This document shows, piece by piece, positions 7,971 through 61,564 of a stretch of 64,000 nt of DNA. Both the position numbers and the translations under genes were made by a program. Every line of letters begins with the position of its first letter. Within the stretch, counting starts at the first letter, position 1. A model generated the notes under the pieces. It made no database searches. It saw only the letters and a program-made list of their open reading frames with translations, and was not told where the DNA came from. The DNA comes from Schmidtea nova. Lineage: Eukaryota. The stretch is taken from the NCBI GenBank assembly GCA_044892505.1, contig CM097882.1, positions 209,870,001 to 209,934,000 on the forward strand, given 5' to 3'.

Positions 7971-8469
7971 TACGGCGATCGTATGTGCGTCTCCTTGTGG
8001 ATCTACACTTCTACATCTTCTCATTTTATAATCTTCTGGTATCATGGGATATACATTTGTCATTGGCATCATTTGCATCGTGGTAGTTCTTCCTCCTTGT
8101 AGTGGTTCTTGGTACATTGTTGGTGGAGGTGCGTAACATTTCCAGGCGTCGGCTGGATTCTTTTCAATGTATTGGGGTGCTTGGTTCTTATACACTTGTC
8201 CTCCTTTATAGTCGTCATCGTCATCATCGTCGTCACTCGAATCATTTTGGGTTTTATATCCTTTCATCCTTTCCAATATACCTTTTCTTTCTCTCTTGAG
8301 CTGTTGTCTTGCTTGTTCGTCATTCATTATCTTCTTAAATTTGCGTCCTATTTCCTCATCTGTTCCCTTCATTTTTGATAATATCTTTAGGAGTCTTTTT
8401 ATTCGGTGGATATCTTTTGAGTGACCGTGTAATACCATGGTTTTAGCCAGAAATGGTAAGAATCCTACC

Positions 8470-33043: not shown

Positions 33044-34517
33044 TGTTGGGTCAGCCAAATCGAGCAGCATCTGAAAGATAATACATAAATTAAGAAAATA
33101 AAGCTACTTAAAATAACAACAAAATAAATTACCAGCATAAAAAGTAGAAAATAAGCGGCAACATCTAAGAGAAATAAAGTATTAATCAAAACAAAATAAA
33201 ACTCAAGAACTCACTCATGCGAAGCAGATAAAATCTGAATATGACAGCGCGTGGGCGGCTGTCACCGAAGAGCTAAAACAAAATCAAATAAAAATTAAAT
33301 CATACAAAAAATAAACTTACCGCATGATTAACCAAATAAATCATTGAGTTGAGTTAGGCACCAAAAAGCCGACAACATAAAAAAATGAATCAAACATACA
33401 CACATACTCGATGCTGATTGGCTGACCAATAACACCGGTTGAGTAAAAATACTGAAGTCAAATCAGTATTTGACAATGTCATTTTTACTGAAGGTAAATC
33501 AGTACAACAGTTACTTTTACGGAAGATATTGTAAAACCGAGTTGGAAATAAAAGGTAATTTGGAGTTATGTTATTGATGTGTTTAAACCCTCATAATTTT
33601 TTATAATCATATTAAAATCCATAAGGTTTTCCGGAGGCCTAACAGCCTGACGGATTCTTGGGCCTCTCAGCGCAACACAATCTTTCGGTTGTGAGGTGCC
33701 GATGCGGCGGGACCATAGGTGTTCTAAATATTTAACAAGCGGAAGGGGGAAGTGCACATAGGATATCTAATGCCATCGTAACAACGGTATGGGCGATAGA
33801 AATTGAAGGATGCATCATCTGTCACAACGACATCGAGTGAATGAGTGTACCTAAGAAGTTTGTCAATAGACCAGGGGTATCTAACGTTCGTGAAGTCGAG
33901 TAAAGTAGCAACAGCTTTGTACAGAGGATATGTATCAGGATAGACAACATCAAGTCAGCTAAATTAAGTACTGACGAGGGTAGAGATGTACAACGCATGA
34001 GTCATGTGAGTTCAGGAGCTGAGAGGGTTAGCGTCAGAGGTAAACAATGAATCAACAAGGCATCCCAACATATATACACCTCTCGAAGGGTACGAAGGAT
34101 AGACCCCACGGATATGCCATGATAGTACGATCTATACCCAATTAGTCTGAGTAAGGGGTTGATCATGTTCCCCGGATGATGTGATCCTTGATAGTTAAAA
34201 TTGATGGTTGGAGGTAAAACCTGAGGAATGATTGAGCATGATTGCTGTAAATATGAACTGAAAAATGTCTCGTAGATAATAACATCCAAACAAAATGAAC
34301 GGTCAAGTGATCTATGTAGTTGAAAACAAAATATCATAAACAGCACGATGAATTATGCGTGGCCAACTCACATAAGCAAATTGATAGAGTGAATATATTC
34401 ACCCACAATGATAATAAAATATGACCTACATGGTATCGCAAACATCGGACTAGTTCAACATTGAACCACCGACTGAAGCCTACAGAGTTTCACCCTTAAG
34501 TCGAGTAGGTCGACGGG

Positions 34518-34525
34518 TATAAATA
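34518..34525 (+). promoter_or_regulatory. Candidate TATA box in the LTR (copy near 60679)
   Basis: TATAAATA about 30 nt before an Inr-like ATCACTC; position alone, no functional data. Confidence 0.4.
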
Positions 34526-34579
34526 ATCGCGCTTACCCGACAAATCTATCACTCTAACATAATTCTTGTCTTCAGCCAC

Positions 34580-35215
34580 ATGATAAAGACCGAAGGATAC
34601 CAAACGGAGCTGATCGACTCACGACATATGAAAGTGGAGGATTATGTCATCCGGAGAAAACGACGTACCCGTTCCATCATCCGGCCAAAGAGGAACCCCA
34701 CCATCGAGGGAGAAATGGAAGCCCCCCGCCGAATTAGTGCAATTGCACGTCGACACTTATGCCGATGGATAAGACATCATACGAGTGCAGCCGCCGATAT
34801 TCCGGCTTGTGCCTTCACCATACAACTGCGATGGGAGGGAGACACCGATTGGACCTCCACCACGGATCCTGCCGAGCCAAGGACCGATAGATGGTTCTAT
34901 CAATTCCTCGACGAACAGAAACGACCCCGTTGGATATTGAGTAATGAGATGATGACGGGAAGGGCTCTATATCAATTAGGGTACATGCTGCTAGACAGGC
35001 CTCGGTGTCGCTACACTGAGGAAGTCTTCGCCTACTCCAACGCGCCAGGAAGCGTGTCTTTAGCGCAACACCCCGAGGCCAAGGAGCTTCGCCTCTGGGA
35101 GGTGTTTATCTACAAAGATAAGCTGAGTTGGAACCCAGCCCCAGAAATGTATTGGGAGAATGGAATTCGTCGCGACGAGCATCCTGCCGATCAGGAATTG
35201 AGAGCATCCAGTTGA
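34580..35215 (+). CDS. LTR ORF1, 211 aa, unknown function
   Basis: Intact in both LTRs; probable homolog in LTR of element A. Confidence 0.75.
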   Translation: MIKTEGYQTELIDSRHMKVEDYVIRRKRRTRSIIRPKRNPTIEGEMEAPRRISAIARRHLCRWIRHHTSAAADIPACAFTIQLRWEGDTDWTSTTDPAEPRTDRWFYQFLDEQKRPRWILSNEMMTGRALYQLGYMLLDRPRCRYTEEVFAYSNAPGSVSLAQHPEAKELRLWEVFIYKDKLSWNPAPEMYWENGIRRDEHPADQELRASS

Positions 35216-35403
35216 TCGACACCACCCGAGAAAGAATGATTGTCATAGATATAAAAATATATGTATTTGTGTGAGAACGGTCTTGTTTTGTTTTCGAGTG
35301 TATGAGAATAGCATGATGATAAGGTGGAGTTGTTTCATAACGACAGGATGACCGAAAGATCAGACACATAACATATACTACCATTAATGATATATTTACA
35401 GAC

Positions 35404-35967
35404 ATGACTGAAACCAAGGACAGAGATTTCAAGCAAGAGGCGCGAGAACATAAGGCGCGCTCACGAGTTTTGGAGAATCGGTTAAGGCAGCTGAATGAGG
35501 AGCATCAGCGGATTAAGACGACATGGTTTAACCCAGAGCGGGTTAAGTCCATCCTGCAAGCTAGATACAGGGCGGAACGAACAATCAACGAACAGGCGAG
35601 AGAGGTCGCAGCCCTGAAATTAGAGTTGGCCAATTACTTAAAGGTGTCGACCCGAGACTTCATCACCGAGCAGTTGCGTCCTGTGATCCGGGCAAGCACT
35701 TTTAATCGATGGGTAGACACGATAGTGGTGACTACGAGCACCCAAACGGAAAATGCATCGACCGTAACTACAGCTACTGCAGTGACAGCTACAACTCCTC
35801 AAGGATCGCAAAGAACAAAGAGAAGGAATCGCTTAGGAGCGAAAAAGCGGAGAGAGCGACGTGCATATGCGGATCGCCTAGGAATAGAAATAGACTTGCT
35901 CAGCGGTCTATCTGAACAAGAACTTCTGAATGTAATTAGACCATCGGTGTTATTAAATTGTAAATAA
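35404..35967 (+). CDS. LTR ORF2, 187 aa, coiled coil with Arg-rich motif
   Basis: Intact in both LTRs; homolog in element A; followed by an overlapping AATAAA at 35963. Confidence 0.78.
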   Translation: MTETKDRDFKQEAREHKARSRVLENRLRQLNEEHQRIKTTWFNPERVKSILQARYRAERTINEQAREVAALKLELANYLKVSTRDFITEQLRPVIRASTFNRWVDTIVVTTSTQTENASTVTTATAVTATTPQGSQRTKRRNRLGAKKRRERRAYADRLGIEIDLLSGLSEQELLNVIRPSVLLNCK

Positions 35968-35968
35968 A
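35963..35968 (+). terminator. Candidate poly(A) signal in the LTR (copy near 62124)
   Basis: AATAAA overlapping the ORF2 stop, followed by a GT-rich tract (TTGTCTTGTTTGTTTGTGG). Confidence 0.5.
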
Positions 35969-36359
35969 TGTATTGTAAACGAATGATTTGACTTGTCTTG
36001 TTTGTTTGTGGAATGTTTGAGGATTGAATGTAACTAAAACCCGGATTCATTTAAACTGCAGATATCTAAAAAGTAAATTACCCTATGACAAAAGGAAAGA
36101 GCATAAGTGGGACCGAAAGAAATCCACAAACACCTTCTATCGGTAGTGGTGGACCCGTGAATAAACAAGGGAATAGTAGCCGCAAGGTTGCTCACCTGCC
36201 TTGTCATTTCACAACGTTGACACAGCACCAACATGATGAGTAGTTAGGGATACATCATGGGTGTCAGCGGGGGAATGTTTTTATGTTGGCGAGATCACCC
36301 TAACATATAAAATCACAATGATCTCAGTTGTCAATCTAACCAACACACCAGCATAAATT

Positions 36360-39422: not shown

Positions 39423-40298
39423 CCAACGAGAGATGTCAGTGGAATCAAAGGTGAGTAGAGATGAGAATTGAAATGAAGTAGTAAACGTAGTATGAATAGG
39501 AAATAAAGCGAATAGCCGAGAAACAGAGTAGTCGACAGATAAGGGGAAATTTGAACTCAGAGCCAGAGAAGCCTGAGAAAAGTAAAGGGGATAATAAGAG
39601 CGCTGAGCGACAAAGTAATTGGGGAACTGGGGAAAAGTAATTGGTGTATTTGATAAAGAATAGATAATTGATGCGACTGCATAGATAATTTAAATAGACT
39701 TAAAATCAAGGGAAATGGGAAAAATGGGGATCTTCATGAATTATGACTACACCCGTGAGAGGGACGAGAAACACGATAACGGGGACGTATCGTGTAAGTG
39801 ATTATTTGTTTTAAGGAAACAAATCAATCAAGCAATTCAAAGCAATCTAGCAGTCAGAGCAATCAAAGGAAACAAATCAAAGAAGAAGCAAAGCAAAAGC
39901 GGAGTAGAAAATCAGTTGAGAATATAAGAAGTTGAGGAATAGACAAAATTGAGGGACGAGAAACAAGATCAGGTATAATACCAATCTTAACGGAAGCAGA
40001 AAGAAAAGCAGCAAAAAGGACAAGAACAGGTAACAAGCCTAAGCAACAAAAGAACAAACAAGTAGAGATCAGCGATAATTCGAGTAATAAAGAGAACCAA
40101 GAAGAAACCCCAGAAGATCTAGAAGTACAAAACGAAGTAGAGACGATAGACAGTGAACTAGTCAGGGAAAACAGAACAAGAAGCGAATCAAGAGATAACG
40201 AAACAGAGAGTAGTGAAGAAGAAGAGTCGAATTCAGAAACAAGTGGTGAACTAGAAGCAAAGAAAACTAGTACAGTATTCCAAGACAGTGGAATCGGG

Positions 40299-41170
40299 AT
40301 GAGTGAACACAGAGAGGATCTGAGAGAAAAATTCAAGGGCGAACCATTCAATGGAGACGCCAGTAGATTGGACACGTTTCTAAAGGAATTTGGCATATTC
40401 GTGGATATATGCGGATGGAGTGCAGAAACGTTGGCAAATCGAATCCCGCTATACTTGAAAGATAGCGCATTGGATCTGTATATTGAAAAGAGATCTGGAA
40501 GTAGTCCACCCAGAACGTGGGAAGCAATCAAGGAGTTCTTCCAACAGACGTTTGGGATAAATAAAGTATTAAACGAAGCGTTCGATGAGTTTTCTGCAAG
40601 AAAACAAAGGAGAAACGAGTCAAATGCGGTGTACGCAAGCGAATTAAGAAAGTTGGCGAAACTGGCATTCAACAGAGGAAGCCCAGTAGATGAAGAATTG
40701 ATGACAGCGTTATTCGTACGAGGTCTCAGGAGACCTGACATCAGAGCACAAGTGGGATGCAAAGGATGTAAAACAGTAGATGAAGCGTTGGAAGCAGCCA
40801 ACCTATTCGAATTGCATATGGCAATGAATGACATGAGAATTACGGCGGTAATGGGAAAAATGACAGAAGATGAAGAACAAGGAAAAAGAAACATGAATCA
40901 AAGTATTCCCCATTCGCAGAGATTGTTCAAAGAACCGCCAGCGAGGAAAAATAATGGATATATCACAGTAAACCCGAATGGAGGAAACAGTTACAATGAC
41001 AGGCAGAATAGGCAATGTCAGACGTGTGGAAAAAACGGACATTGGCAACAAGATTGTTTTCAGAATGTAGCCTGCAAACTGTGTGGACAAAAAGGTCACT
41101 CAGAAAATCGATGTTATGGGAAAACGTGTTACACATGTGGAAAAACCGGACACATGTCAAGAGACTGTAA
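40299..41170 (+). other. gag: Gag: capsid-like domain and three CCHC zinc knuckles
   Basis: FNGDASRLDTFLKEF...W..IKEFF...RKQRRNES..YASEL; CQTCGKNGHWQQDC, CKLCGQKGHSENRC, CYTCGKTGHMSRDC. Confidence 0.92.
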
Positions 41171-44100
41171 TCAACAGAGAAGTTGGTCAAACAGTGGAAA
41201 TAGACCGAATTACGGGAATCGACCAAGCTATGGGAATCAGGGTCAGCAACGGAACAACCCAAACAGCAGTGCAAATGAAGTCAGTATGAAAGAAGCCAAG
41301 TTGAGACAGGAGGTATCCAGATTACACGAGATAATCGAAAGCATGGCAAAAGGAAGCCAACAAGCTGCTCAACCAAAGATAAACATGATCCAGTTAATAG
41401 AAGCTGAGGCTGAAAGAGAAAATAGAGAAAGCCAACAGAAACATAATCAAGAATGGGCTAGAATACGACGAGAAGAAGAACAAGTCAGACAACAACGACT
41501 ACAACAGTTAAAAAAGGGAAATCCAAGGATCAACATGATGCGAGCAAGGATGGAAAAGAAGCAGCAGGATGAGTCAGACGAGTTAGAAGTTAAAGAGAAA
41601 AGAAACGAAGAGCAGAAACAAGAAGAAGTGAATCAGGAAGTAGAAGTCGCAGAGCAGAATCAAAAAGCTGAAGAAGTAGAAAAAGAAACGAATCAAGAAG
41701 CGGAAGTAAGAATCAAACAAAGAGGAATGTTGGTGATCATGCCGAATGATCACGTATGGCGATTCAAATATGATGTAAAAGAAGAAGTAGGAAGACTGTT
41801 CAATAAAGTAAATGAGATGATTCCGGGAGTAACGAAACTACCCAGAGAAGCATTCCTACAAACAGAGGATTTACCGGAAGTGAAGTTAAAGATGACTGAT
41901 ATATGGGAAGATATGGGAGTAACGGAGACAAAAATAAACGTGATGATCATCAGAGAGGTGGAACCGGAGAAAATCCCACCACCAGTGAAACATCAAACTC
42001 GGATCAGTCGAATATTCAAAGGAAAAATAAGACGAAGACGGTTGGAAGAAATAGATGAGTTGGAGAAAAGAATGGGAAAAGCTGAAGTAACAGGAAACGA
42101 GAATGAACTAATACAAGAAGTTAGCAAAAACGAAGCGAGACCAACCGCACATATTGGGATGCTGAGACACCCAAGACAAGAGTTGTCAGATGAAGAAGAC
42201 AACAGCGAAGTTAGCAGTCTGGCAGGAGACATGCTAAAGGAACCGGAAAACGAGGACAAAAAGATGGAAGTAGTTGAGACGATGGAAACAGTGTCAGTAA
42301 CGGAAGACGAAATTCAGAAGCTGATGGATAACGCGTTGGAAGTAATCCATAACGAGGAGTTTATCGACAAGAAACGATACCGAAAGTTTATACGAGCAGT
42401 ATGGCAAATGAAGTACAAAGAGTGGTTACAAGAAAGAGAAGTGAGAGTAATACAAGAGTTCATAGAGAAGTTATTGAAAGAACCACTCAACGAATACGTA
42501 ATACAAATATGGATAAACGAGTGTTCACCGAGAATCTGGATAAGGAACCCAATGACAGACGGAATTTACCGATGGGTTGAGGACAGATTGGGAAGCTCGT
42601 ACAAAGACAAATTCATATACTCAGAAAACGGATTGGTGAGAAAAGGAACGCATATGATAGACACGGGCATCTGGCCAGGAGAAATAACAACGTTATCAAT
42701 ACGCAACACCAAAAAGGAAGAGAACTTACAAGGAATCGTCAAAGAAGCGAATACGTGTTATGAGATGAGAATAAAACCTCAGTTGCTAGAGGCAAAGGAA
42801 AGAATCTTGGCGGAGAATTTGAATACGATAATAGAACAGATCATCCAACAAATCAAGAAACATCGAAAGGAATTGACGAAAAGCGAGTATGAGAATTTGA
42901 AACAGTGTATCGAGAACATACGAGATACGAGTCAAACGAGACATTCAAATTTCAAGACGGACAAGCTAATTGCAAAGATGGGAAAAGAAATGTTTAAACG
43001 AGGTGAGGTATCAGATCTGAAGATTACCGTGAGATTACCAAACGAAGAGACAAAACAAATTGAGGTAATACCAGATAGTAAAGTGGGAGAAATAGTAGAT
43101 GTCATCAATGAGACGATATTACAACGAGAACGAGAAGACGAATTCGAGGATTACATTGCGATAAAATACAAAGAACACCTACTAAACGAACGTGACGAAA
43201 GACGAGCGTATAAAATCGGCATATGGGATAATTATCAGACAATACATGTCATCAGAATGGATGATGTGCAAAGAGCAACACCAAAAGATGAGGAAAGGAG
43301 AAAGAAACGACAAGAGGACGTTATGCGTAAGCTGAGGCAGATAGTAGAAATCTATCGGAACTGGCAGATGAAGCCAGAATTGGAGACAATATTGGGAGAA
43401 TTGGATCTTAACAGACGACGAGTGACGCCAGTAGGGAAACAATGGGATAGTAAAGAGAAATGTTGGAAAGTGAAAAGAGGCGTGTATGAAGAAGATCCGG
43501 AAGTGGAAGACAGATACGAACCGAATACGAAACGGATATGTATGGTAACAAGGAGGTTATTACCAACGGACTTAGACGGACCAGAAACTGCAGTAATATG
43601 GGCAGAATTGGAGAAACAGAAAACGAGTGAATTGATCGAGCTGTTGAGAGGAAATACTCGGGGGAAAAGACAAACAATAAAAGGCTTAGCACAATTCATA
43701 ATCTCAAATGGAGAAGACATAACGAACTTGAGAAAAGTAGCTAAAGCGATAGCAGAATACAAGAGAGTTAATGAGTGGTGTCCAGAGCAACTAGACGATG
43801 TAATAAAAAAGTGGAGAAACAGAGAATTCGCGGAGGAAATGCCACAGAAAATACATTTGAGGATAATGTATCCGAATCAAAGAAAAGAAGAGTTTTGGGT
43901 GATGCTAACAGAGAAAGTGAAAAGTATTAAAGAGAAACTGATGTATGAACTACCATTCCACCTGCAACATCAAGGACGATCGTTGGATAATAGTTTGGAA
44001 ATCTGGCTGACACCAGTACAATTGGACCTAATGAACACGCTAACAGTGGCACAAATAGTGGGTCAACCACTGAAGTTTAAAGAGGAAAAGAAACCGAAAG

Positions 44101-47100
44101 GAAGCATGAGTACACCAAGTCCGATGAAGTCAACAATGACCCCAGGAACAAGTTCGGGACAAGCAAGGACAACACCAATAAAAACGAGAGAGAGAACACC
44201 GCCAGAAGCGTATGATGTGGATGAGATACTAACCGACAGTGACGAAGCAATAGAAGAATTAACGAAACTGACTCAAAAACCAACGGCGAACATTTTTGAC
44301 AAAATAATAGAGATGCCAATAACGTCACCAGCAGAAATCGACGATCAAGGAGTGGAACAAGAGGTAGTCATAGAAATGGTAAACGATTCGGAAGACGAGC
44401 AAGAACAACCACAATTTACTCAGGAAATGGAAAGATGGTTGGAACAACGAGCAAACGAAGGAAGAGATGTTACCGAAGAAACCGGAAGAGCAACGAGATT
44501 TGTAGAAACCGGAACTGGAATGGAAAAACGACCAAGAGGAAGACCAAAGATAGATCCAACAACAGCAATCCCAAAGACAAGGGAAGAAAGGAGACAAGAG
44601 CAATGGGAGATTTGCTTAAAGAAATTAGACAAAATCGCAGAAATCAGAGGAAAAGAGGAGAATCAAGTCTGCCAAGGAGAGGAATGGCTCACCAAAACGA
44701 TAATGGATGTGTTAGCAATAATTGACCCAGAATTAAAGAATTTGTGGCGGATAAACGAACCTAGTACAAAGGCAAAGATGCTACACAATGCAATAGCACC
44801 GATTATGCCAGAATTGATAAAAGCGAAAACAAAATCAAATCATCTAGATTGGCAAGGAACCACGAGGTTAATAAAAAGGCTACTTAGCGGAGCAGAGACG
44901 GACAGCAAATATCTGGTAGCAATCTCGTATACGATATACAATCTGTTAACGCTAAGCCGAGGAAGTCCGAAGTCAAGTCCGATGGGAAGACATATCAAGA
45001 ATACGGCGATGATTATCGAGAAGGAAATTGAACCATATATCCTCAGAAAAGGAGGATGGGAAAAGTTCATAAAAGAGAACCAGACAAAAGAGGGTTCAAA
45101 CGTGATGAGAAAGAAACTTGAAGGAGTATTGAGAGAAATGGAGAATAGACAAACAATGCAAGGAAACGGAAGATCGACGTTGAATTTAAACTCGATAATC
45201 ATGATGATGTTAGTATGGTTGTTAAGCACAGAGGGTGTAACAACATTTGAAGTATTTGATTGCGATCAAATGAAGTTAGGAGAAAAGTACTCATTGAGAG
45301 GTACGGAGCAATGCAAAGATGCAACTCCAGTAGAGTTAAAAGAGATTAAAAAAGAACAATGGTACCACGTATATCAAGAGGCAGAACTAATAAAGACAAT
45401 GGTGAATGAATGCAAAGTACAAAAGACGAGATTCGCATTCTATTGTGGTAGAGGACATTATTCAGCAATTGTCATGCCAGGAACCGAAAGAGAACCAATC
45501 GTGTTGCAAGGAGAAGACTGCGAAGCATTGTTTAAACATGGAGAAGTAACAACGAGAGATAAAATCAAGATAAGAGGAAAGCCAGGAATGATGTTGCAGC
45601 AGACGTATTATGTAGCAGGACGGATTACGGGAGGAGAAGGATATTGTCAAGGAGAAACCTACCCAATATTCGGGGTACCTGCAACCAACTTAGTAGTGAT
45701 GGATACGTACATAGTCGAACTGAAAAGCTACGAGGCATTCTTCGAACCAACAACAGGAGAAATGAAAACGTTATCCATGTGTAAAATTGACAGAAGCATG
45801 TGTCAAACGGGAATGTCAACATTGGTGTATAAACCAAAAGTGAACGAATGTCAATTACAACTGCTACAAGGAGCAAAGTTCGACGAAATACAAGGAAAAA
45901 CGTTTCAAGAAGAGGACGATGATGACAAGGCTAGAGCAAAGCATCTCAAAGAAGCTTTAGAGAATAAAAGACAATTGAAACCAGATCATAGAGAAAAACG
46001 AATAGAGATGAGAACAACACCAACAGTGTTGATAACCACAAATCAGGATGTGGGCATGAGATTCATAAAAGGGAAAGCAACCCTTAAGTGCAGTACAACA
46101 GTATACGAAACGAATTATCCAGGAATATACGTGTCGAAACAAGAAGTGCCGAATGCGAAACCCAAGATCGACACAATGGATATCAAGCTACACTTGTATG
46201 TGAATAATAAAATGGATTTCTTATTCCATAGAGGACAAGCCTCATTGCAAAAAGTGTACTATGATCTGATAAACAACGATTGTATACTGAACCGGGAAAT
46301 ATTGAAGACAAAGTTGGCCGTAGCGATTACGAATCCAGATAGCGCGATGCCGTTATTACCACTGAGAGAAGGACATTTCGGAAGAGTGGTTGGAGAGGCA
46401 ATGTATGTATACATTTGCGAAAAGACACACGCATCGTTAGCAGCAACAACGCAGTTGAAGCCTGGACAATGTACAAACGAACTAGAAATCGATTATAAAG
46501 GAAAAGTACGATATGTTCAACCGGTGACGAGAATCATCAATCCACCAGGGTTTGAACCAAATCCATTCAACTGTAGTAATGCGTACGGACCGCTTTATCA
46601 GAAGCCAGATGGCAAATGGGTAATGTTCCCAGGAAGAACCGAAGTATTAGCACCAAGAGAATTTGAGCTAATGCAGTTGTCAAAAGATAGACAGTTCAGC
46701 GACGTAGATGTCTCAAACAACGGAATCTATAGCCCAAAAGATTTAGAAGCAGCCAGACAGAATATACTATTTCCGGCAAGAAGAGAAGCATTACTGTCAA
46801 ATATCGTAACGATAACGGGAGGAACGGATTATCGAGAAGGACCGAATTACGAACTGTTGTTGTCACCGGCACATTTCAAGAAAGCCACAGAAAACATGAT
46901 GAAGGCAATGTGGGGAAGATTCCTGATATTCGGACAAATGATGGCTGGAATACTGGGAGTGATATTGATAATACAAATCGTCAGAGTGATAATAACGCAA
47001 ATGTTAGCGTGCTTCGATATCTACAAGAGAGAAAAGAAAGTGAATTGGAAAATGGTAGTAGGATTTTTACCATTCCTTGCGAAAACGATGGTGTTGCACG

Positions 47101-50100
47101 GACACTCAAAAGACATACATCGAAAAAAGAGGTTATTGAAGATACTTGCAAAAATGAAAGGAACAAACGAAGATGTCGGAAGGAAATTCAAAAAGATAAT
47201 GCAAGACGAGCAAGCAAGGCGACAACTAAAGAAAGAAAGGAAAGGATTATGGGAAAGAGTGAGAGGATATCGAACGCAGGATGACTCAAGCAATGATGAC
47301 GACGATGACGATCAAGGAGGACAAGCGAATATAAACCAGATTCCACAGTATAACGAAAAGAGTGCAGTTGAGAATTGGAGATACAGTGCTCCACCCCAGT
47401 CAATGTATAACGAACCGATATACAAAGCGAAGCCGAATATGATGCAGATGATGCCGATGACAAGTATATACCCGATAATTCCAGAAGGATGTAAAGTAAA
47501 ACGATGCAGAAGTGTAGACCCGTTGGAAGACACGCACACGATAGCGGTTATGTCCACAAATATGGGACCGATTTTAACAACAACCGTAGAAATAAACGGA
47601 AGAGAAATTGAAGCTATGATCGATACAGGCGCGAATATTTCGGCAATCGACATCAATTATATACCAGAGAAAAACCAAGGAGAAATAGAGAAGACGAATG
47701 TTCATGTAATCGCGTGCAGTCAAGAGACAGTAGAAGTAGCCGGAAGATGGTTTGTAAAAATTAAGCATCGAGGTGCAGAAATCAACACGTACATCGCTGT
47801 AATACCATCGCTGAGTGTACCATGTATTATTGGAACTGACCTGATGCCAGACCTGTTCAAGGAAATCGTAATTGATCTAGGAGCAATGAAGCTAAAAGAT
47901 AGAACAGGAAAAATCTGCAGAATGAAAGTTAAAGTGGCAAGTACAGAACAAATAGTAGTGCCAGCGAGACACGAAATGATGTGCTATGTCAAGATCGATT
48001 CAACAATAAAGGGAGATATGATATTCGAACCAAGTAAGAAGTTCGAAGCGAAGAAAGAATTACCAATGGCCAGAGAATTGGTTACGATAAACCAAGAAGG
48101 TGAGATACTGATTAATCTGGTGAACTTCGACGAGGAGGACAAGATAATATACGAGAATGAGAATTTGGGTAAATTGACACCCATGTCCGAAATCGAGATA
48201 CCAGACAAGAACGTGAAAAGCAAAAGCGAATTACCATGGAAAATCGACAGTGTGTTGTTAGACGAACGACAAAAAGAACAGTTACAGAAACTGTTGATGG
48301 AATATCAAGACATATTCGCAGCATCAGATCTGGATTTAGGAACATGTGACGTAACATTACATACGATACCGTTGACAGACGAAACGCCAATCGCATTAAG
48401 ACCATATAAATTGGCAGAAGCTCAAAAAGCAGTGGCAGAAGAAGAGGTACAAAAGATGTTAGATGCAGAGGTCATCGAACCTAGTTGCTCACCCTGGCAA
48501 TTCCCAGTGGTGATGGTGAAAAAGAAGGATGGAACTCAGAGATTCTATATCGATTACAGACGATTGAACGCAGTTACGAAAAGAGATACGTACCCACTGC
48601 CAGATATAAACGAAATGTTGTTGACGTTACAAGGAGCAGCTTATTTCACGTCACTGGATTTAAAAAGTGGATATTGGCAGATCAAAATGAAAGACGAGGA
48701 TAAAGAGAAGACAGCATTTACAATCGGACGAGATCTGTACCAATTCAAGAAAATGCCGTTTGGGTTAACAAACGCGCCAGCATCATTCCAGAGATGCATG
48801 AATTTCGTAACACATGGCATAAAACAATGCATGGTGTATATTGACGATCTATTGATCTACTCCGCAACATTTGAAGATCACTTGCAAGACATCAGAAATG
48901 TGTTCGTGAAATTGAGACAGTGGAAACTGAAATTAAAGCCGTCAAAGTGCGATTGGGCAAAAGAGAAAGTGACATTCTTAGGTCACATTGTATCAGCAAA
49001 AGGAAAAGAACCAGATCCAAGGAATATCGAAAAAGTTAAAGAATGTCCACCACCAAAGACAGTGACTCAAATACAAGAATTTTTGGGATTGTGTGGATAT
49101 TATCGAAAATTTATCAAGGACTATGCAGGACTCTCAAAACCAATGCAAGAATTGGTAAGACAAGATGTATCGTTCGTATGGGGAGGAGAACAACAAGCAG
49201 CATTTGAAACACTACGGGACAAGCTGATTACAGCACCAATATTGGTCCATCCAGATTTTAAGAAGCCATTTTTGTTGGCAACAGATGCAAGTGGATACGC
49301 AGCAGGAGCAGTACTAGGCCAATTTGATGAGGAAGGCAAGGAAAGAGTAATTGGATATTACAGTCGAACATTCAGAAAGCATGAAAAGAATTACTCAGTC
49401 ACGGAAAGAGAAGCCTATGCGATAATATTGGCAATCAAGCATTTCAAGTACCTATTGTGGGGTCATGAAATATATATCACGACGGATCATCAACCATTGG
49501 TATGGTTAGGTCAACATAAAGAATCATCAAGTAGATTGATGCGTTGGGCGATGCAGTTGCAGGAATACTCGCCATTCATAAAGTTTAAAGCAGGAAAAGC
49601 AAATGCGAACGCGGATTGCATGTCAAGGTTTACATTCCCAGAATTGGTGAACCTAAATGCTCTAAAAATATGTGCATTAATAGCGGAGGATTTGGATTTC
49701 AGCGAATTAAGGAAAGATCAACTCGAAGATGAGGAGTTGGGATTGATCAGCAAGTATTTGAAAGAAAGGGAAATAGAAATATTCGGCAAAAACCAAGTGT
49801 TGCGCGAACATATGCAAAAATACCAACATAGATACGTGATGGAAAAAGGATGGTTATTGATACAAGATGGAGAACGAAGATTGATGTGCTTACCTGCGAA
49901 TAGACGAAAGGAAATCATGACTCAATATCATGACGGAAAATTAGGCGGACATATGTCAGCAAAAAAGACAATCGGGAGATTGAGACAAAAGTATTTTTGG
50001 CCAACCATGGAAGATGAAGTGAAAGAATGGATAAAGAACTGCTTAACCTGTGCGACAAGAAAGAACGTCGGAACGAAGTGGAAAACACCACTAAAACCAA

Positions 50101-53100
50101 TGCCAATACCTGCAGAACCTATGGCAACGATAGCAATGGATGTAGTTGGACCATTGCCAGAAAGTTTAAAAGGAAATCAATATATATTAATAGTCACGGA
50201 CTATCTAACAAAGTTCCCAGAAGCATTCGCAATACCGGATCAAAAAGCGAAAACAGTCGCGAGAATATTGGTGGAAGAAATATGCTGCAGATATGGAACA
50301 CCAAAGAAAATCCTAACGGATCAAGGAACGAATTTCATGAGTGAAATATTGGACGAAGTTACGAATTACTTCAGAATTGCGAAATTACGAACATCCCCAT
50401 ACCATCCACAAACGAACGGTCAAACAGAAAGATTCAATGGAACATTGATACGCATGTTGTCAAATTATGTCAGTAAACATCAAACTGACTGGGATGAGTA
50501 TATAAACCTGTGTTTAATGGCATATAGAATGTCAATACATGCGGCAACAAAGCTAAGTCCATTTCAACTGATGTACGGAAGAGATTGCAACTTACCGATC
50601 GATTTAGAATACCAACCACCATTATCACAGTACATGGAGGTTGACGATTACGTTACAAAGTTCAAAGAAAGAATGCAAGAAATCTGGAAAACAGCGGAAC
50701 TGAACATCAAGTTCTATCAAGAGAGTTACAAGGATCTGCATGATCAGAAAAAGAATGTGAAAGCACATGATTTAAAAGTTGGAGATTGGGTGATAATCGA
50801 GACACCAGAGATAATACCCGGTACGGTCAAGAAACTCCAACGACCAGGCAAAGGGCCATATGAAATAACAACAGTAAACGAAAACAATGTGCGGGTACGA
50901 TTGGTGAACAATCCATTGGTAAGACCAATATACGTGAATGCATGTCGATGCAGGAAAATCCCAAAGACAGCAACTCTATCACCAGAAAAACGGGTAATTA
51001 CAAGATCACAGACGGCGAGAATCAGTATGTTACGAGTACAACAAAAGCCGCAAACAAGTCTAGAAGACAACCGAAGAGAAGCAATAGATAGCAAAGAACT
51101 GGCAAAGAGGACCAGAGAAATTATACCAGAATGGAAATGGTGGTTCGATTTCAATATATTGACAGAAGTTCGAAAGAATGTAATGGAGTATTCGAAGGAT
51201 AGAACAGCACATCCAATAACAAGAACGCTGCTAGAGGAAATCCCTCAAACATTGAACCTACAAGACAAAGACGGTAACACAGCGTTGCACAATGCAATCA
51301 AGCACAGTGGGAACGAAAAAGTGAAAGAGATCGTAGAGATGATACTCGAAGGTGGAGGAGAAATTGACAAAGTGAATTGGGAAGGAATCACTCCACTTAT
51401 GATGATGACAATTCACGGAAGAAACGATGAGATAGTCAAGCTATTCGGAAACACCAGATCAAATTGGATGACAAAGGATAAAGAAGGACGAACATTCTTA
51501 AATCATGCAATTGATAGAGCGAATCACCGAATACTAAAGTATATCACGGAAAACGCCACGTGGGAAATCGATGAACTAACTAGAGGATCGATCATGAAAC
51601 AAGCAATCGGAGTAAGAAACAGTAAAACCTGGAGAATACTGCTAAAGTGGAAACGACCAGAAGGAGATTCGTGGGTCATAGATTGTAATGAAGTGTTCAC
51701 AAGAGGAGAAAATGCGTTACTGAAACATCTACTAGAGGTAACATACGATCCAAAAACACTTGCAGTGTTAATAGCGAGAGATACGTTACGGGTTAGCGAA
51801 AACCCAAGAGAATTCAAGTTGGAAGACAGAAAGAAAGAACTATTCGGATTAATCAGGAAATGGTGTGATAAGCAATGGAATGCGCATATGAGCTTCGAAC
51901 ATTTTTATGACATTCAAAAGCAGCACAAAGAAATAAACAAGAGATATAAAGAGCTGATAGAAGCATTGAAATATGGACATTTCTTCAGACAAGCAGTGTA
52001 CCAAGACCAACGGAGGAAACAGATGCAAACACGAATAAGAAGCAAAGCCGTGTTGTTCAATGCAAAAGCCGATGATCAAGAGAGATTAGACGCAATCGTA
52101 GCAAAAGCACAGGAAAAACTATCGGAATTCAAGGAGAATAAAAACTCGTTGGAAATACTAGGAGCAATTACAGAGAAAGTGCACAGATACGCACAAGGAG
52201 ATTATAACGAAAGTGACATAGAAACGATCAAGAATCAAATGCCAGTGGCATTCCTTTTATCAAAGGATGGGAGATTACCGATACACTGGGCATTACGTCG
52301 AAAGAAAGAAAACGAAGTGCTGGAAATAACGAAAGCAATGATAAAGTGCGAAGCAGATATGAATATGGTTGATGATAACGGAGACACAATAATGATAATC
52401 GCAGCAAGAAAGAAGACGAAATTGAAAGTGCTACACGAGTTATACGAAGCAGGAGCCAAAATCGAAGGGAAAAATGGAAAGAAAAATTCCATCATAGATA
52501 TCGCAATACAGTGGAACAACTTCGAGATGATCAAGTTCATAAAGTCCATCAAGAGACAAGAGGACATAGAATACCTGGCAAATAACGTAAAGAAGTTCAG
52601 TCTGACAGTAATGATACACGACATAGAGAAAACGAGAGCATTACTAACATGGGTGAATCCGATCACCAAAGAACCAGCGCTCAAGATCAATGACCATATG
52701 GAACAGAATCAGAATTGGTGTATCAGAAGCGCGTTATTAAGACACAAAAAGCCAGAGATAGTAGAAGAATTCTTAAAGAGAAGAGATTTGAAGTTCACGA
52801 ACAATCCAAAGGAACCCGAACGAACGGGAAGATGGAAAGACTTGTTCAGAAAATATGTGAATGAATGGGCAAATGCCAAAGAAACGATCAAACAAAGTAG
52901 ACTAAAAGACATAGAACCATCCAAAGATATGGAAATACGGGAATTCGAGTCTAGCACACTCACAGTTCAAGCGTATGAAAGATTGATTGAAGAAATCAAT
53001 GTCGAGGACGACATTTTCAAAGGACCAGGGGGTGGTTACAGAGATTTCGACGACAAAAGCAACAACGAAGAGAACAACGAAGACAATGACAACAAAAGAA

Positions 53101-55175
53101 CGGAGGATAATGAAAAAGAAAGACAAGAAGAACCGAAGCCAACGAGAAACGACAAGAAAGGAGAAGCAGAAGAACGAGAAAACAGTGGAACAAAAGACGA
53201 ACATGCGAACTATGGAAAACGAACAGGAAGTCTACTTTTGAGACCAGAAATGTTGTGTATTGCGATATTGATAACAATCATCGGACAAGGAGAAGCCAAG
53301 AAACAATACGTCACGCTAGAGATAATCAGAGGAAATGAAGTATATGAAAGAATATGCTGGAAAGAAAACCTGAAGAAAAACGATACGCTGAAGTGTATAT
53401 TGTCAGATCTGAAGCGAGACGTCATCCAAATCAAAGGATTGGAGAAAGAAAAATCATACATAATATGCGCAATAAAGCAGAGAGGAGAACCAAAAGCACC
53501 TCAAGTAACTGCATGTCAATTATATAAAGCAACAGAAGCGCTGAAAATACAGAAATGGATTGGAAAAAGAAGCGAAGAGACAACGAGAAGAACAGAAGTG
53601 GAACCAGAGAAAGGGAAGAATCAAACCGAAACAGAAGAAGGAATCGGAAACCAAACAGAGAAAGAAAGAATAACCAAAAATCCAGCGGGAAAATTAACAT
53701 TCCAACCAGAATTGATATGTGTAGCATTAATATTAATCCTCATTAAGAGAATCATGGAGGACATAGATATCAGCGTGATGACGTTAGTAAATATCCAAGA
53801 CCAACGAACAACGAACGGAAGATGTTGGGGACGAAACAATGAAGTAATTGGAATCAGCGAAACAAGAGAAAGCCGAGAAGTAGAGACAAATGAAGAAATC
53901 GAAATAACCAAAATACACACAGATAGAAAATGTGAACTATGTCTCATGGAAAAAGCAGCAAACGGAAACAGACCAGGAACAAGCGAGTGTAAAGTGTTCC
54001 AAGCAAAGGAGATAATTGAGTTCCCAAAAAGAAGGAAACAAGATCAAGAAACGATTACAAATAAAGTAGTAACTGTGGAGATAAAAAACATTGGTCGGAG
54101 AACAATTGGGATGTGTTGGAGAAAATACATCGGAGTAACGACCAGTCACGTACTACCGCAATGCAGAACGAGAGAACGAGGAATCCCGTTTCAATTAAAT
54201 GGATTCGAAGTCGGACAAGCATATGAAATTTGCGTAATCCGAAGAATAAGAGAAATAATACAAAGAAGCCTGGAATGTAAACTATACAAGACGCCAGAGC
54301 AAATTAACGGAACAAGAACGATCGAAATGGGAGGAAGTCGACAGAGGAAAAGAAAGTCAAGAAAAACCACGACAACCAACAGTCAAGGAGTTCAACAGGC
54401 AACAATAGAAAAGACGACAATAGAAAACGAACCGGAATCAACAACGTTGATAATATGGAAGATCCATAAAAAGGTCCTAGAAATCTGTTGGACGTTGATG
54501 CCAAACAGTATGGGAAAGTCCCCACGAAACTGTCAAAAGACATCAAATGACAAAAGGGAAACAATCGAGGTAGAAATGAGAAAGTTGAAAACAAACGCAG
54601 AATACGAAGTGTGTGCAATCGAAGAAGTAGATGCACAAGGAAACCCACAAGAAAGGTGCGAAACCTATTACACGCCAAGGAACATAACGATAAAGGGGAG
54701 AACCCGCAAGTTAGAATTCCGAGAATTGAGTCAGAAGAGAAAACAAAACGAGAAGGAGGAGACAATACCAAGTCGACAAGAAAAATGGGAACCAGAGAAA
54801 GTGATCGAAGAAGTCAGACGGAGACAACAACAATACGAACAATGGGAAGCAGAATGGAAAGGTCAATATGGCGTGATGATAAACCAAAGTGAGACTCCAA
54901 GAAGGAGCATTGGGAAAACAATAATGGGATTAATCAGCATGGGAGTATTCATAGCGTGTATTCCACTGATAACGATCATGATAGTATGTTGGAGATATGG
55001 CATGAGAAATAAGACCATAGCAGTAAAATGGCCGGACGTAAAAGTCACGAATTACAACATAAAACTACCAAAAGAAGTACGAGAAGAGCTGAAAAGACGA
55101 TCAAAACACGAAGAAATGTGGGTACAGATCGAGGACGAGGAACTGTACGAAGGAAAACCAGTGATAGTTGTATAG
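40299..55175 (+). CDS. 4,958-aa Gag-(UBL/Bcl-2-like)-Env-PR-RT-RH-IN-Ank-FN3-like-TM polyprotein
   Basis: Single uninterrupted ORF carrying all canonical retroelement motifs plus extra domains. Confidence 0.97.
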   Translation: MSEHREDLREKFKGEPFNGDASRLDTFLKEFGIFVDICGWSAETLANRIPLYLKDSALDLYIEKRSGSSPPRTWEAIKEFFQQTFGINKVLNEAFDEFSARKQRRNESNAVYASELRKLAKLAFNRGSPVDEELMTALFVRGLRRPDIRAQVGCKGCKTVDEALEAANLFELHMAMNDMRITAVMGKMTEDEEQGKRNMNQSIPHSQRLFKEPPARKNNGYITVNPNGGNSYNDRQNRQCQTCGKNGHWQQDCFQNVACKLCGQKGHSENRCYGKTCYTCGKTGHMSRDCNQQRSWSNSGNRPNYGNRPSYGNQGQQRNNPNSSANEVSMKEAKLRQEVSRLHEIIESMAKGSQQAAQPKINMIQLIEAEAERENRESQQKHNQEWARIRREEEQVRQQRLQQLKKGNPRINMMRARMEKKQQDESDELEVKEKRNEEQKQEEVNQEVEVAEQNQKAEEVEKETNQEAEVRIKQRGMLVIMPNDHVWRFKYDVKEEVGRLFNKVNEMIPGVTKLPREAFLQTEDLPEVKLKMTDIWEDMGVTETKINVMIIREVEPEKIPPPVKHQTRISRIFKGKIRRRRLEEIDELEKRMGKAEVTGNENELIQEVSKNEARPTAHIGMLRHPRQELSDEEDNSEVSSLAGDMLKEPENEDKKMEVVETMETVSVTEDEIQKLMDNALEVIHNEEFIDKKRYRKFIRAVWQMKYKEWLQEREVRVIQEFIEKLLKEPLNEYVIQIWINECSPRIWIRNPMTDGIYRWVEDRLGSSYKDKFIYSENGLVRKGTHMIDTGIWPGEITTLSIRNTKKEENLQGIVKEANTCYEMRIKPQLLEAKERILAENLNTIIEQIIQQIKKHRKELTKSEYENLKQCIENIRDTSQTRHSNFKTDKLIAKMGKEMFKRGEVSDLKITVRLPNEETKQIEVIPDSKVGEIVDVINETILQREREDEFEDYIAIKYKEHLLNERDERRAYKIGIWDNYQTIHVIRMDDVQRATPKDEERRKKRQEDVMRKLRQIVEIYRNWQMKPELETILGELDLNRRRVTPVGKQWDSKEKCWKVKRGVYEEDPEVEDRYEPNTKRICMVTRRLLPTDLDGPETAVIWAELEKQKTSELIELLRGNTRGKRQTIKGLAQFIISNGEDITNLRKVAKAIAEYKRVNEWCPEQLDDVIKKWRNREFAEEMPQKIHLRIMYPNQRKEEFWVMLTEKVKSIKEKLMYELPFHLQHQGRSLDNSLEIWLTPVQLDLMNTLTVAQIVGQPLKFKEEKKPKGSMSTPSPMKSTMTPGTSSGQARTTPIKTRERTPPEAYDVDEILTDSDEAIEELTKLTQKPTANIFDKIIEMPITSPAEIDDQGVEQEVVIEMVNDSEDEQEQPQFTQEMERWLEQRANEGRDVTEETGRATRFVETGTGMEKRPRGRPKIDPTTAIPKTREERRQEQWEICLKKLDKIAEIRGKEENQVCQGEEWLTKTIMDVLAIIDPELKNLWRINEPSTKAKMLHNAIAPIMPELIKAKTKSNHLDWQGTTRLIKRLLSGAETDSKYLVAISYTIYNLLTLSRGSPKSSPMGRHIKNTAMIIEKEIEPYILRKGGWEKFIKENQTKEGSNVMRKKLEGVLREMENRQTMQGNGRSTLNLNSIIMMMLVWLLSTEGVTTFEVFDCDQMKLGEKYSLRGTEQCKDATPVELKEIKKEQWYHVYQEAELIKTMVNECKVQKTRFAFYCGRGHYSAIVMPGTEREPIVLQGEDCEALFKHGEVTTRDKIKIRGKPGMMLQQTYYVAGRITGGEGYCQGETYPIFGVPATNLVVMDTYIVELKSYEAFFEPTTGEMKTLSMCKIDRSMCQTGMSTLVYKPKVNECQLQLLQGAKFDEIQGKTFQEEDDDDKARAKHLKEALENKRQLKPDHREKRIEMRTTPTVLITTNQDVGMRFIKGKATLKCSTTVYETNYPGIYVSKQEVPNAKPKIDTMDIKLHLYVNNKMDFLFHRGQASLQKVYYDLINNDCILNREILKTKLAVAITNPDSAMPLLPLREGHFGRVVGEAMYVYICEKTHASLAATTQLKPGQCTNELEIDYKGKVRYVQPVTRIINPPGFEPNPFNCSNAYGPLYQKPDGKWVMFPGRTEVLAPREFELMQLSKDRQFSDVDVSNNGIYSPKDLEAARQNILFPARREALLSNIVTITGGTDYREGPNYELLLSPAHFKKATENMMKAMWGRFLIFGQMMAGILGVILIIQIVRVIITQMLACFDIYKREKKVNWKMVVGFLPFLAKTMVLHGHSKDIHRKKRLLKILAKMKGTNEDVGRKFKKIMQDEQARRQLKKERKGLWERVRGYRTQDDSSNDDDDDDQGGQANINQIPQYNEKSAVENWRYSAPPQSMYNEPIYKAKPNMMQMMPMTSIYPIIPEGCKVKRCRSVDPLEDTHTIAVMSTNMGPILTTTVEINGREIEAMIDTGANISAIDINYIPEKNQGEIEKTNVHVIACSQETVEVAGRWFVKIKHRGAEINTYIAVIPSLSVPCIIGTDLMPDLFKEIVIDLGAMKLKDRTGKICRMKVKVASTEQIVVPARHEMMCYVKIDSTIKGDMIFEPSKKFEAKKELPMARELVTINQEGEILINLVNFDEEDKIIYENENLGKLTPMSEIEIPDKNVKSKSELPWKIDSVLLDERQKEQLQKLLMEYQDIFAASDLDLGTCDVTLHTIPLTDETPIALRPYKLAEAQKAVAEEEVQKMLDAEVIEPSCSPWQFPVVMVKKKDGTQRFYIDYRRLNAVTKRDTYPLPDINEMLLTLQGAAYFTSLDLKSGYWQIKMKDEDKEKTAFTIGRDLYQFKKMPFGLTNAPASFQRCMNFVTHGIKQCMVYIDDLLIYSATFEDHLQDIRNVFVKLRQWKLKLKPSKCDWAKEKVTFLGHIVSAKGKEPDPRNIEKVKECPPPKTVTQIQEFLGLCGYYRKFIKDYAGLSKPMQELVRQDVSFVWGGEQQAAFETLRDKLITAPILVHPDFKKPFLLATDASGYAAGAVLGQFDEEGKERVIGYYSRTFRKHEKNYSVTEREAYAIILAIKHFKYLLWGHEIYITTDHQPLVWLGQHKESSSRLMRWAMQLQEYSPFIKFKAGKANANADCMSRFTFPELVNLNALKICALIAEDLDFSELRKDQLEDEELGLISKYLKEREIEIFGKNQVLREHMQKYQHRYVMEKGWLLIQDGERRLMCLPANRRKEIMTQYHDGKLGGHMSAKKTIGRLRQKYFWPTMEDEVKEWIKNCLTCATRKNVGTKWKTPLKPMPIPAEPMATIAMDVVGPLPESLKGNQYILIVTDYLTKFPEAFAIPDQKAKTVARILVEEICCRYGTPKKILTDQGTNFMSEILDEVTNYFRIAKLRTSPYHPQTNGQTERFNGTLIRMLSNYVSKHQTDWDEYINLCLMAYRMSIHAATKLSPFQLMYGRDCNLPIDLEYQPPLSQYMEVDDYVTKFKERMQEIWKTAELNIKFYQESYKDLHDQKKNVKAHDLKVGDWVIIETPEIIPGTVKKLQRPGKGPYEITTVNENNVRVRLVNNPLVRPIYVNACRCRKIPKTATLSPEKRVITRSQTARISMLRVQQKPQTSLEDNRREAIDSKELAKRTREIIPEWKWWFDFNILTEVRKNVMEYSKDRTAHPITRTLLEEIPQTLNLQDKDGNTALHNAIKHSGNEKVKEIVEMILEGGGEIDKVNWEGITPLMMMTIHGRNDEIVKLFGNTRSNWMTKDKEGRTFLNHAIDRANHRILKYITENATWEIDELTRGSIMKQAIGVRNSKTWRILLKWKRPEGDSWVIDCNEVFTRGENALLKHLLEVTYDPKTLAVLIARDTLRVSENPREFKLEDRKKELFGLIRKWCDKQWNAHMSFEHFYDIQKQHKEINKRYKELIEALKYGHFFRQAVYQDQRRKQMQTRIRSKAVLFNAKADDQERLDAIVAKAQEKLSEFKENKNSLEILGAITEKVHRYAQGDYNESDIETIKNQMPVAFLLSKDGRLPIHWALRRKKENEVLEITKAMIKCEADMNMVDDNGDTIMIIAARKKTKLKVLHELYEAGAKIEGKNGKKNSIIDIAIQWNNFEMIKFIKSIKRQEDIEYLANNVKKFSLTVMIHDIEKTRALLTWVNPITKEPALKINDHMEQNQNWCIRSALLRHKKPEIVEEFLKRRDLKFTNNPKEPERTGRWKDLFRKYVNEWANAKETIKQSRLKDIEPSKDMEIREFESSTLTVQAYERLIEEINVEDDIFKGPGGGYRDFDDKSNNEENNEDNDNKRTEDNEKERQEEPKPTRNDKKGEAEERENSGTKDEHANYGKRTGSLLLRPEMLCIAILITIIGQGEAKKQYVTLEIIRGNEVYERICWKENLKKNDTLKCILSDLKRDVIQIKGLEKEKSYIICAIKQRGEPKAPQVTACQLYKATEALKIQKWIGKRSEETTRRTEVEPEKGKNQTETEEGIGNQTEKERITKNPAGKLTFQPELICVALILILIKRIMEDIDISVMTLVNIQDQRTTNGRCWGRNNEVIGISETRESREVETNEEIEITKIHTDRKCELCLMEKAANGNRPGTSECKVFQAKEIIEFPKRRKQDQETITNKVVTVEIKNIGRRTIGMCWRKYIGVTTSHVLPQCRTRERGIPFQLNGFEVGQAYEICVIRRIREIIQRSLECKLYKTPEQINGTRTIEMGGSRQRKRKSRKTTTTNSQGVQQATIEKTTIENEPESTTLIIWKIHKKVLEICWTLMPNSMGKSPRNCQKTSNDKRETIEVEMRKLKTNAEYEVCAIEEVDAQGNPQERCETYYTPRNITIKGRTRKLEFRELSQKRKQNEKEETIPSRQEKWEPEKVIEEVRRRQQQYEQWEAEWKGQYGVMINQSETPRRSIGKTIMGLISMGVFIACIPLITIMIVCWRYGMRNKTIAVKWPDVKVTNYNIKLPKEVREELKRRSKHEEMWVQIEDEELYEGKPVIVV
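41720..44055 (+). other. Region with up to four ubiquitin-like (beta-grasp) domains
   Basis: For example LKITVRLPNEETKQIEVIPDSKVGEIVDVI..IAIKYKEHLL..IGIWDNYQTIHVI and IHLRIMYPNQRKEEFWV..VKSIKEKL..FHLQHQGRSLDN; pattern match by eye. Confidence 0.55.
44590..45090 (+). other. Bcl-2-like domain
   Basis: BH1-like LDWQGTTRLI and BH2-like IEPYILRKGGWEKF, conserved in element A. Confidence 0.6.
45180..47100 (+). other. env: Env-like glycoprotein (chuvirus/herpes gB-type) with signal peptide, furin-like REKR site (45990-46001) and TM
   Basis: FEVFDC..YSL..C, FYCG..HYS, GE.MYVYIC, C.NEL...Y.G..RYVQPVTRII, GIYSPKDLEAARQNILFPARR match the chuvirus glycoprotein pattern as I recall it. Confidence 0.8.
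47553..47910 (+). other. Retropepsin-type aspartic protease
   Basis: VEINGREIEAMIDTGANISAI ... IIGTDL. Confidence 0.95.
47920..48185 (+). other. Degenerate dUTPase-fold-like spacer common in animal Gypsy pol
   Basis: IVVPARHEMMC..MAR.LV..I.INLVNF....IIYENENLG; catalytic motifs not evident. Confidence 0.4.
48309..49630 (+). other. pol: Reverse transcriptase and RNase H
   Basis: SPWQFPVVMVKKKDG, LDLKSGYWQI, MPFGLTNAPASFQ, YIDD, FLGH; LATDASGY, EREAYA, TDHQPL. Confidence 0.98.
49880..50960 (+). other. Integrase (HHCC, DDE core, GPY/F)
   Basis: YHDGKLGGH..CLTC; MDVVGP, TDQGTNF, GQTERFN; KKLQRPGKGPYEI. Confidence 0.97.
51240..52760 (+). other. Two ankyrin-repeat clusters fused after integrase
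   Basis: DKDGNTALHNAI, NWEGITPLMM, DKEGRTFLNHAI; KDGRLPIHWAL, DDNGDTIMIIAA, LYEAGAKI. Confidence 0.85.
53230..55000 (+). other. Hydrophobic signal-like segments, four FN3-like Cys modules and a C-terminal TM helix
   Basis: Repeated CW....C....L....Y.(I/V)C....C..Y.T; TM IMGLISMGVFIACIPLITIMIVCW (about 54918-54993). Confidence 0.55.
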
Positions 55176-61376: not shown

Positions 61377-61564
61377 TCGACACCACCCGAGAAAGAATGA
61401 TTGTCATAGATATAAAAATATATGTATTTGTGTGAGAACGGTCTTGTTTTGTTTTCGAGTGTATGAGAATAGCATGATGATAAGGTGGAGTTGTTTCATA
61501 ACGACAGGATGACCGAAAGATCAGACACATAACATATACTACCATTAATGATATATTTACAGAC

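Follow-up and report, generated by a model that had tools for sequence, protein, structure and literature searches.

The env segment of a giant Ty3/gypsy retrotransposon of the Burro type, here called element 2, encodes what is, by its profile matches and predicted fold, a class III fusogen of the gB/chuvirus G type, and it does so within the single open frame that also specifies Gag and Pol. The most likely route for its expression, and one that we consider probable from the sequence and the model, is the co-translational threading of a single Gag-Env-Pol polyprotein through the ER. In addition, the env ectodomain seems to have been exchanged, on its own, with a sister Burro family (element 1) that is present in the same window, that is, the whole stretch of 64,000 nucleotides of Schmidtea nova DNA that was analysed. 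The env layout is already published, and element 2 adds another family to it, not a new design; compared with the literature that we found, the apparent ectodomain-only exchange between two Burro families is a small addition.

Element 2 is an LTR retrotransposon of 29,471 bp that occupies positions 33044-62514 of the window on the plus strand. Its TG...CA LTRs, its 4-bp target-site duplication (CTGG) and the order PR-RT-RH-IN are those of Ty3/gypsy elements (Metaviridae). The main features are the following:

33044..36353 (+): 5′ LTR of element 2, 3,310 bp, TG...CA, with CTGG just before it
39936..55175 (+): single open frame of element 2, 5,079 codons between stops, with the first Met at aa 122
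40446..41168 (+): Gag capsid domain (PF03732, E 4e-6) and three CCHC zinc knuckles (PF00098)
44865..45080 (+): BCL-2-like domain, BH1-BH2 region, with GGW at aa 1707-1709
47580..50408 (+): protease, reverse transcriptase, RNase H and integrase, matched in Pfam and in Ty3/gypsy order
59205..62514 (+): 3′ LTR of element 2, with CTGG just after it

The polyprotein runs from Gag and the CCHC knuckles (three, at aa 361-411) through the BCL-2-like domain, env, PR (PF00077, with DTG at aa 2563), RT, RH and IN to ankyrin repeats. A preliminary description of this DNA had placed env in frame between Gag and the protease. The frame is indeed uninterrupted, but Gag and env are ~1,330 residues apart, a poorly characterised stretch with the BCL-2-like domain at its end. 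Assignment of the BCL-2-like domain relied on a homologue profile and on the literature rather than on the single-sequence fold. A profile of five homologues matched Bcl-xL with an E of 0.001, all rows listed being BCL-2 family chains, and homologue P0009 matched PF00452 (E 0.001). The Pfam scan of the window's own BCL-2-like sequence gave no match, a fold search with its single-sequence fold (pLDDT 45) retrieved nothing but helical bundles of a generic kind (Z up to 5.3), and the Atlas yielded no usable match. By its length and its one polyprotein of 5,079 aa, element 2 is a Burro-type giant Ty3/gypsy retrotransposon. It also has the ankyrin repeats, the MATH/TRAF domain and the env placed between BCL2 and PR that are expected of such elements, along with a BCL2-like domain for which the profile match is weak (E 0.001).

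Further open frames and repeats accompany the polyprotein. Three accessory ORFs between its end and the 3′ LTR (55724-57154, 57223-58404 and 58472-59002, all plus strand) encode a TRAF-like RING/zinc-finger/MATH protein (PF22486, E 4e-27), one with a coiled coil and a small one that gave weak matches only. Within each LTR of element 2 there are open frames of 230 aa and 208 aa, counted between stops, and none of them gave a match above the Pfam cut-off (34523-35215 and 35341-35967 in the 5′ LTR, 60684-61376 and 61502-62128 in the 3′ LTR, plus strand). The 5′ leader of element 2 holds tandem arrays at 38152-38671 and 38929-39431, with a 19-nt unit and an 84-97-nt spaced repeat, and the leader of element 1 holds a 32-nt tandem unit at 16443-16837. 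Between Gag and the BCL-2-like domain, the stretches ~43020-43240 and 43850-43930 (+) looked ubiquitin-like by eye; a member of a third Burro family, L044, gave a weak ubiquitin match (E 0.096), and a Ubi2/SUMO-like motif is described for Burro in the available portions of PMC6431247. Between elements 1 and 2 lie large inverted repeats, 86-97% complementary (24782-27689 and 30814-32800), along with decayed RT-like sequence (23915-24931 and 32525-32806).

The env segment of element 2 comprises the following parts:

45156..45245 (+): internal signal-peptide-like segment, with in-frame Met 1741, core aa 1754-1763 and a predicted cut after T1770
45246..46925 (+): class III ectodomain, aa 1771 to ~2330, ~560 aa, 14 Cys, central helix aa 2085-2132
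45990..46001 (+): REKR, aa 2019-2022, within a charged loop modelled at low confidence (model residues 220-259)
46938..46994 (+): TM helix, aa 2335-2353, hydropathy 2.55, followed by KREKK
47040..47096 (+): weak second hydrophobic segment, aa 2369-2387, with a central Pro and flanking Lys

The ectodomain matched Pfam PF24664 with an E of 8e-69 and 232.6 bits, which, at a cut-off of 27, is far beyond chance. When 1.84 billion representatives were searched with phmmer, 945 proteins were recovered at E up to 0.001, first polyprotein relatives at 29-46% identity and then many proteins of ~650 aa at 20-29%. A single-sequence search with env against PDB sequences gave nothing significant; with a profile of 109 env homologues, all 33 rows were herpesvirus gB, matched over the central helix at a best E of 0.0035. 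The AlphaFold (AF2) model of aa 1771-2330, built as a monomer, had a pLDDT of 87.4 and combined a beta-rich fusion domain with a long central helix of 48 residues, as gB-like folds do. Foldseek with this model against the PDB listed herpesvirus gB in 37 of 37 rows (best E 3e-14, with moderate TM scores of 0.26-0.44), and the best match in BFVD was the G protein of Tacheng tick virus 4, a member of the chuvirus group (E 6e-35, TM 0.64). These results uphold the earlier proposal of a chuvirus/gB-type glycoprotein with structural similarity to viral fusogens and an ectodomain of about 550 residues; fusion activity is predicted from the fold. The same proposal had called the ectodomain Cys-rich, which is true to a modest degree: 14 Cys in 560 aa (2.5%) compare with 83 in 5,079 (1.6%) for the whole ORF, and 10 of the 14 are conserved in at least 90% of a 109-sequence alignment.

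An assignment to class I, as for baculovirus F or gypsy Env, was rejected because the class III match spans the whole ectodomain. F-type families were absent from the Pfam matches and from the fold matches listed, which were filled by class III proteins, nor did the ectodomain show the conserved furin site, followed by a fusion peptide, that is typical of class I. REKR does lie in a charged loop, as had been described, but as a feature of the design the furin-type site failed: by eye, R-X-K/R-R was present in this loop in 1 of 17 homologues (1/8, 0/6 published rows, 0/2 and 0/1 by set), and a conserved site was therefore rejected. The whole ORF of element 2 contains six R-X-K/R-R motifs, so that one per 560 aa is about chance level, and REKR is followed by IEMRTTPT, not by a hydrophobic peptide. 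REKR appears lineage-specific; cleavage may occur in this lineage, outside the design and as an option at most. In the accessible text of PMC13524379, the furin site of GAG-ENV-POL elements with gB-type ENV is likewise called 'not always conserved'.

Threading through the ER can well be inferred for env from the sequence. The signal-like segment, recognised earlier as a signal peptide, has a core of 10 residues followed by STEGVTT, a 19-residue hydropathy of 1.52 and F1771 (nt 45246) as the probable first residue after the cut; segment and cut site were judged by eye with the (-3,-1) rule. In all eight homologues that reach this region, small residues at -3/-1 were seen by eye after a hydrophobic stretch and just before a (Y/F/W)DC motif. 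The type I pattern of signal, ectodomain and TM is thus conserved in these eight sequences; a weak second hydrophobic segment follows the TM. The TM helix, too, is where it had been placed, and the KREKK that follows it favours a cytosolic C-side.

In the scheme that we favour, the ~1,750 N-terminal residues, from Gag to the BCL-2-like domain, would be made in the cytosol. Aa 1754-1770 would then serve as an internal signal and be cut by signal peptidase, leaving a short membrane tail on the upstream product, while the ectodomain would fold and form disulfides in the ER lumen and trimerise like gB. The TM would stop transfer, and PR-RT-RH-IN would remain cytosolic and joined to the tail of Env, to be released later by the protease of the element. 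Gag, Env and Pol would be present 1:1:1 on one membrane, from which particles could bud with Env, and furin cleavage would be optional at most. Internal signals are used by coronavirus, alphavirus and flavivirus polyproteins. Counting against this scheme are the shortness of the signal core (10 residues) and its position 1,750 residues from the start of the ORF, as well as the single N-X-S/T sequon (N2212) in the ectodomain. The main doubt about the topology concerns aa 2369-2387, since a membrane-spanning segment at this position would make the protease luminal. This segment is conserved, with a 19-residue hydropathy of ~1.3 when calculated by hand, and we read it as amphipathic rather than membrane-spanning.

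The signal-like segment sits ~45 residues after the BH2 motif, which is roughly the distance at which BCL-2 proteins carry their tail anchor. By this analogy, the env signal may also anchor the tail of the BCL-2-like protein. The BH2 motif is absent before the signal in P0005, P0049 and P0022, so the pairing of BCL-2-like domain and signal is not obligatory.

Homologues and genome copies show how widely the junction between env and its neighbours is kept open. Among 22 public proteins scanned, 14 had env and a downstream protease or RT in one protein, and three of the 22 had an upstream Gag or CCHC as well. Two of these are compact, with env within ~530 residues of the start, and the design is thus not limited to giant elements. 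The env query gave 3,799 candidates in the genome; among the best 68, a set biased to intact copies, 67 matched without a stop and 21 lay in frames of more than 5,000 aa. The third Burro family (60 places listed, L044 among them) has the same order of BCL-2, signal, env, TM and PR, with an env that is 36% identical and that, in domain I-II, resembles by eye the published Smed_errantivirus_1. As a separate observation, P0004-P0008 and P0016 carry two or three tandem protease-like domains after the env TM.

Conceivably, functional Env, with Pol behind it, could instead come from an RNA that is spliced or initiated internally and enter the ER through an N-terminal signal peptide, the full-length frame serving mainly for Gag. 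Retroviral and errantiviral env proteins are made from spliced messages, and a start at Met 1741 would give a textbook signal peptide of 30 residues. A Met is found shortly before the core in both elements of the window and in 6/8 homologues, a seventh being borderline; within 25 residues, however, a Met is expected by chance about half the time, and P0022 has none before the core. The third family often shows open frames of ~3,440 aa around env, not 5,000. Against this stands the junction, which is open in those 21 of the 68 best genome copies and also in the distant elements P0006, P0016 and P0018, an openness that this route alone would not require. We consider separate expression unlikely. 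In four sequencing runs of unspecified type from one study, compared with 39900-57200, GT..AG ends were absent from the 15 joints listed out of 20.

Even if Env is translocated, it might act without infectious particles, either within the cell, in anchoring assembly or in budding at the ER or endosome, or in cell-cell fusion. Planarian stem cells would pass elements on, so that infection of the germline need not occur, and the mechanism of transmission outside Drosophila is called unknown in the accessible text of PMC13524379. Yet the full class III fold and the conserved cysteines have been kept, and both families now carry an ectodomain that alone appears to have been exchanged, a pattern more readily understood if selection acts on the part that faces outward. 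A non-infectious role therefore seems to us quite improbable, and threading, after which particles could bud with Env, is preferred. The cell-to-cell infectivity proposed in the preliminary description is putative, being suggested by fold and conservation only.

At the end of the polyprotein we noted a second candidate membrane-threaded module:

53226..54986 (+): aa 4431-5017, with two signal-like stretches, Cys-containing FN3-like repeats and a C-terminal TM

In the Atlas, fn3 clusters were assigned to this region at 0.75-0.79, which is below the reliable range of the tool and serves as a lead only. Homologous repeats lie in element 1 (~3-2846, minus strand), and no mention of such a C-terminal module was found in the accessible parts of the Burro description (PMC6431247).

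The second copy of env in the window provided indirect evidence for the role of the ectodomain:

8215..10420 (-): env of element 1 (sister Burro family), with a frameshift near 8705

Element 1 lies on the minus strand at ~1-18 kb of the window and has several breaks, this one included. The earlier statement that env is seen in both elements thus holds for its presence, but the copy in element 1 is frameshifted. At the DNA level the two elements are 70-78% alike over Gag and Pol and 91% over env. At the protein level 483 of 495 ectodomain residues are identical (98%), as are 397 of 433 in RT-RH. Codons for the same residue were compared by eye. Synonymous differences amounted to 32 of 195 in env (16%, two samples) and 50 of 92 in RT (54%, one sample); for the TM with the tail the figure was 25 of 58 (43%). 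Within 200 codons of the env samples there were 32 synonymous and 5 non-synonymous differences. The contrast between 16% in the ectodomain and 54% in RT suggests that nothing but the ectodomain was exchanged. The drop covers 45246-46900 (plus strand) against ~8705-10280 (minus strand), and the upstream switch lies near 45246-45290, at the predicted mature N-terminus. The shared ectodomain would seem far younger than the split of the window's two Burro families. The simplest reading of these small samples, compared by eye, is that recombination moved the ectodomain alone, which then spread under purifying selection.

A lone recombinant copy was considered for element 1 and rejected, as 17 of the 39 other places with a 97-98% match to its env directly adjoin places among the top-40 matches to its Gag side, which makes the exchange family-wide. 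Alternatively, the near-identity of env could stem from extreme constraint on both protein and RNA rather than from recombination. Within the element-1 family, env is indeed 97-98% alike where the Gag side is 93-95% and RT 95-96%. However, synonymous differences are down to 16% only inside the ectodomain, against 43% in the equally conserved TM and tail and 54% in RT; no overlapping frame of at least 150 aa was found across 45300-46700, and the 36% identity of the third-family env indicates that the protein tolerates much change. Constraint as the explanation is, in our view, highly improbable, and recombination remains the preferred reading. Because the env of the third family is too distant, the direction of the exchange could not be set. 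Read depth over env was two to three times that over the rest in 4/4 runs, as a shared env would lead one to expect, but it was left unused since contig depth cannot rank gene parts and the runs were found with the same stretch.

An ectodomain-only exchange argues indirectly that the part facing outward is functional and selected. The family, being young and present in many copies in a planarian-type host, lends itself to work on polyprotein processing and on the fusogenicity of gB-type env. On a bolder picture, which we regard as doubtful though conceivable, Burro elements would be true enveloped retroviruses of an alpha- or flavivirus-like kind. Their polyprotein would cross the ER several times, the env signal would be the tail anchor of the BCL-2-like protein, Pol would enter particles on the Env tail, and the second luminal module, with its FN3-like repeats and TM, would act in attachment or as an immune decoy, while ectodomain cassettes would be exchanged between families and spread by selection in the manner of serotype switching. 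In the open text of PMC and bioRxiv, neither ER threading or topology nor env exchange was found for Burro, and no tests of Gag-Env-Pol processing or of the fusogenicity of retrotransposon gB-type env were found in open PMC/bioRxiv text. The text of PMC3315495, on Cer1 with its single long ORF, does not contain the word env.

Among known proteins, G of Chuviridae/Jingchuvirales gives the best structural matches to the env of element 2 and shares PF24664 at ~20-27% identity, but it is encoded by a free-standing gene, whereas env of element 2 lies inside a polyprotein. Herpesvirus gB resembles the ectodomain in its class III fold and long central helix at 9-13% identity; gB needs gH/gL, and such partners were not identified with the env of element 2. 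In BEL/Pao elements env follows the integrase, and in P0058 env is preceded by DUF5641. The chuvirus-like comparison, with Anakin, a BEL/Pao element of mosquitoes, comes from Dezordi et al. 2020 (PMC7642597, accessible text). Capture of env by analogy with such elements, as had been suggested earlier, is disputed in the accessible text of PMC13524379, where an ancient origin and association of env is argued rather than recent capture.

Burro annotations do include the env domain, which removes the implied novelty of the layout. In the portions available, Arkhipova and Yushenova 2019 (PMC6431247) place Burro env in frame between BCL2 and the protease, and a GAG-ENV-POL class with gB-type ENV followed in 2026 (PMC13524379). 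According to those portions, Burro/GYPSM1 is like element 2 in its size of ~30 kb, its one polyprotein of ~5,000 aa, a Gag with CCHC knuckles, the BCL2-like domain, env before PR, ankyrin repeats and a TRAF/MATH accessory. Set against that Burro (PMC6431247, same portions), element 2 has LTRs of 3.3 kb, its TRAF-like gene is a downstream accessory ORF, and the parts scanned gave no match to BIR. The same source ties Burro env to gypsy Env and to fusogens of the baculovirus/paramyxovirus type (96.7% in HHpred), whereas the model of element 2 is class III, and no discussion of env topology was found in it. In planarians, RNAi against smedwi-2 raises the level of BURRO1 RNA (PMC8532177).

Also close are the elements of Chary and Hayashi 2026 (PMC13524379), who, in the text available, describe for Nematoda, Bryozoa and Platyhelminthes GAG-ENV-POL elements whose ENV is of the gB type and list six Schmidtea mediterranea elements of 14.5-18 kb. 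Their Platyhelminthes class C1a shares with element 2 the GAG-ENV-POL order, the gB-type fold and an ectodomain between signal and TM, and their six S. mediterranea domain I-II rows match the env of element 2 motif for motif by eye. The words 'Burro', 'polyprotein', 'in-frame' and 'single ORF' do not occur in their main text, and ER threading is not treated there in those words. The accessible text holds that env has seldom recombined and did so mostly long ago, while granting that recombination is likely between elements within a single species. Compared with this, the ectodomain exchange between elements 1 and 2 looks recent, and it qualifies the view of env recombination in these elements as rare and ancient.
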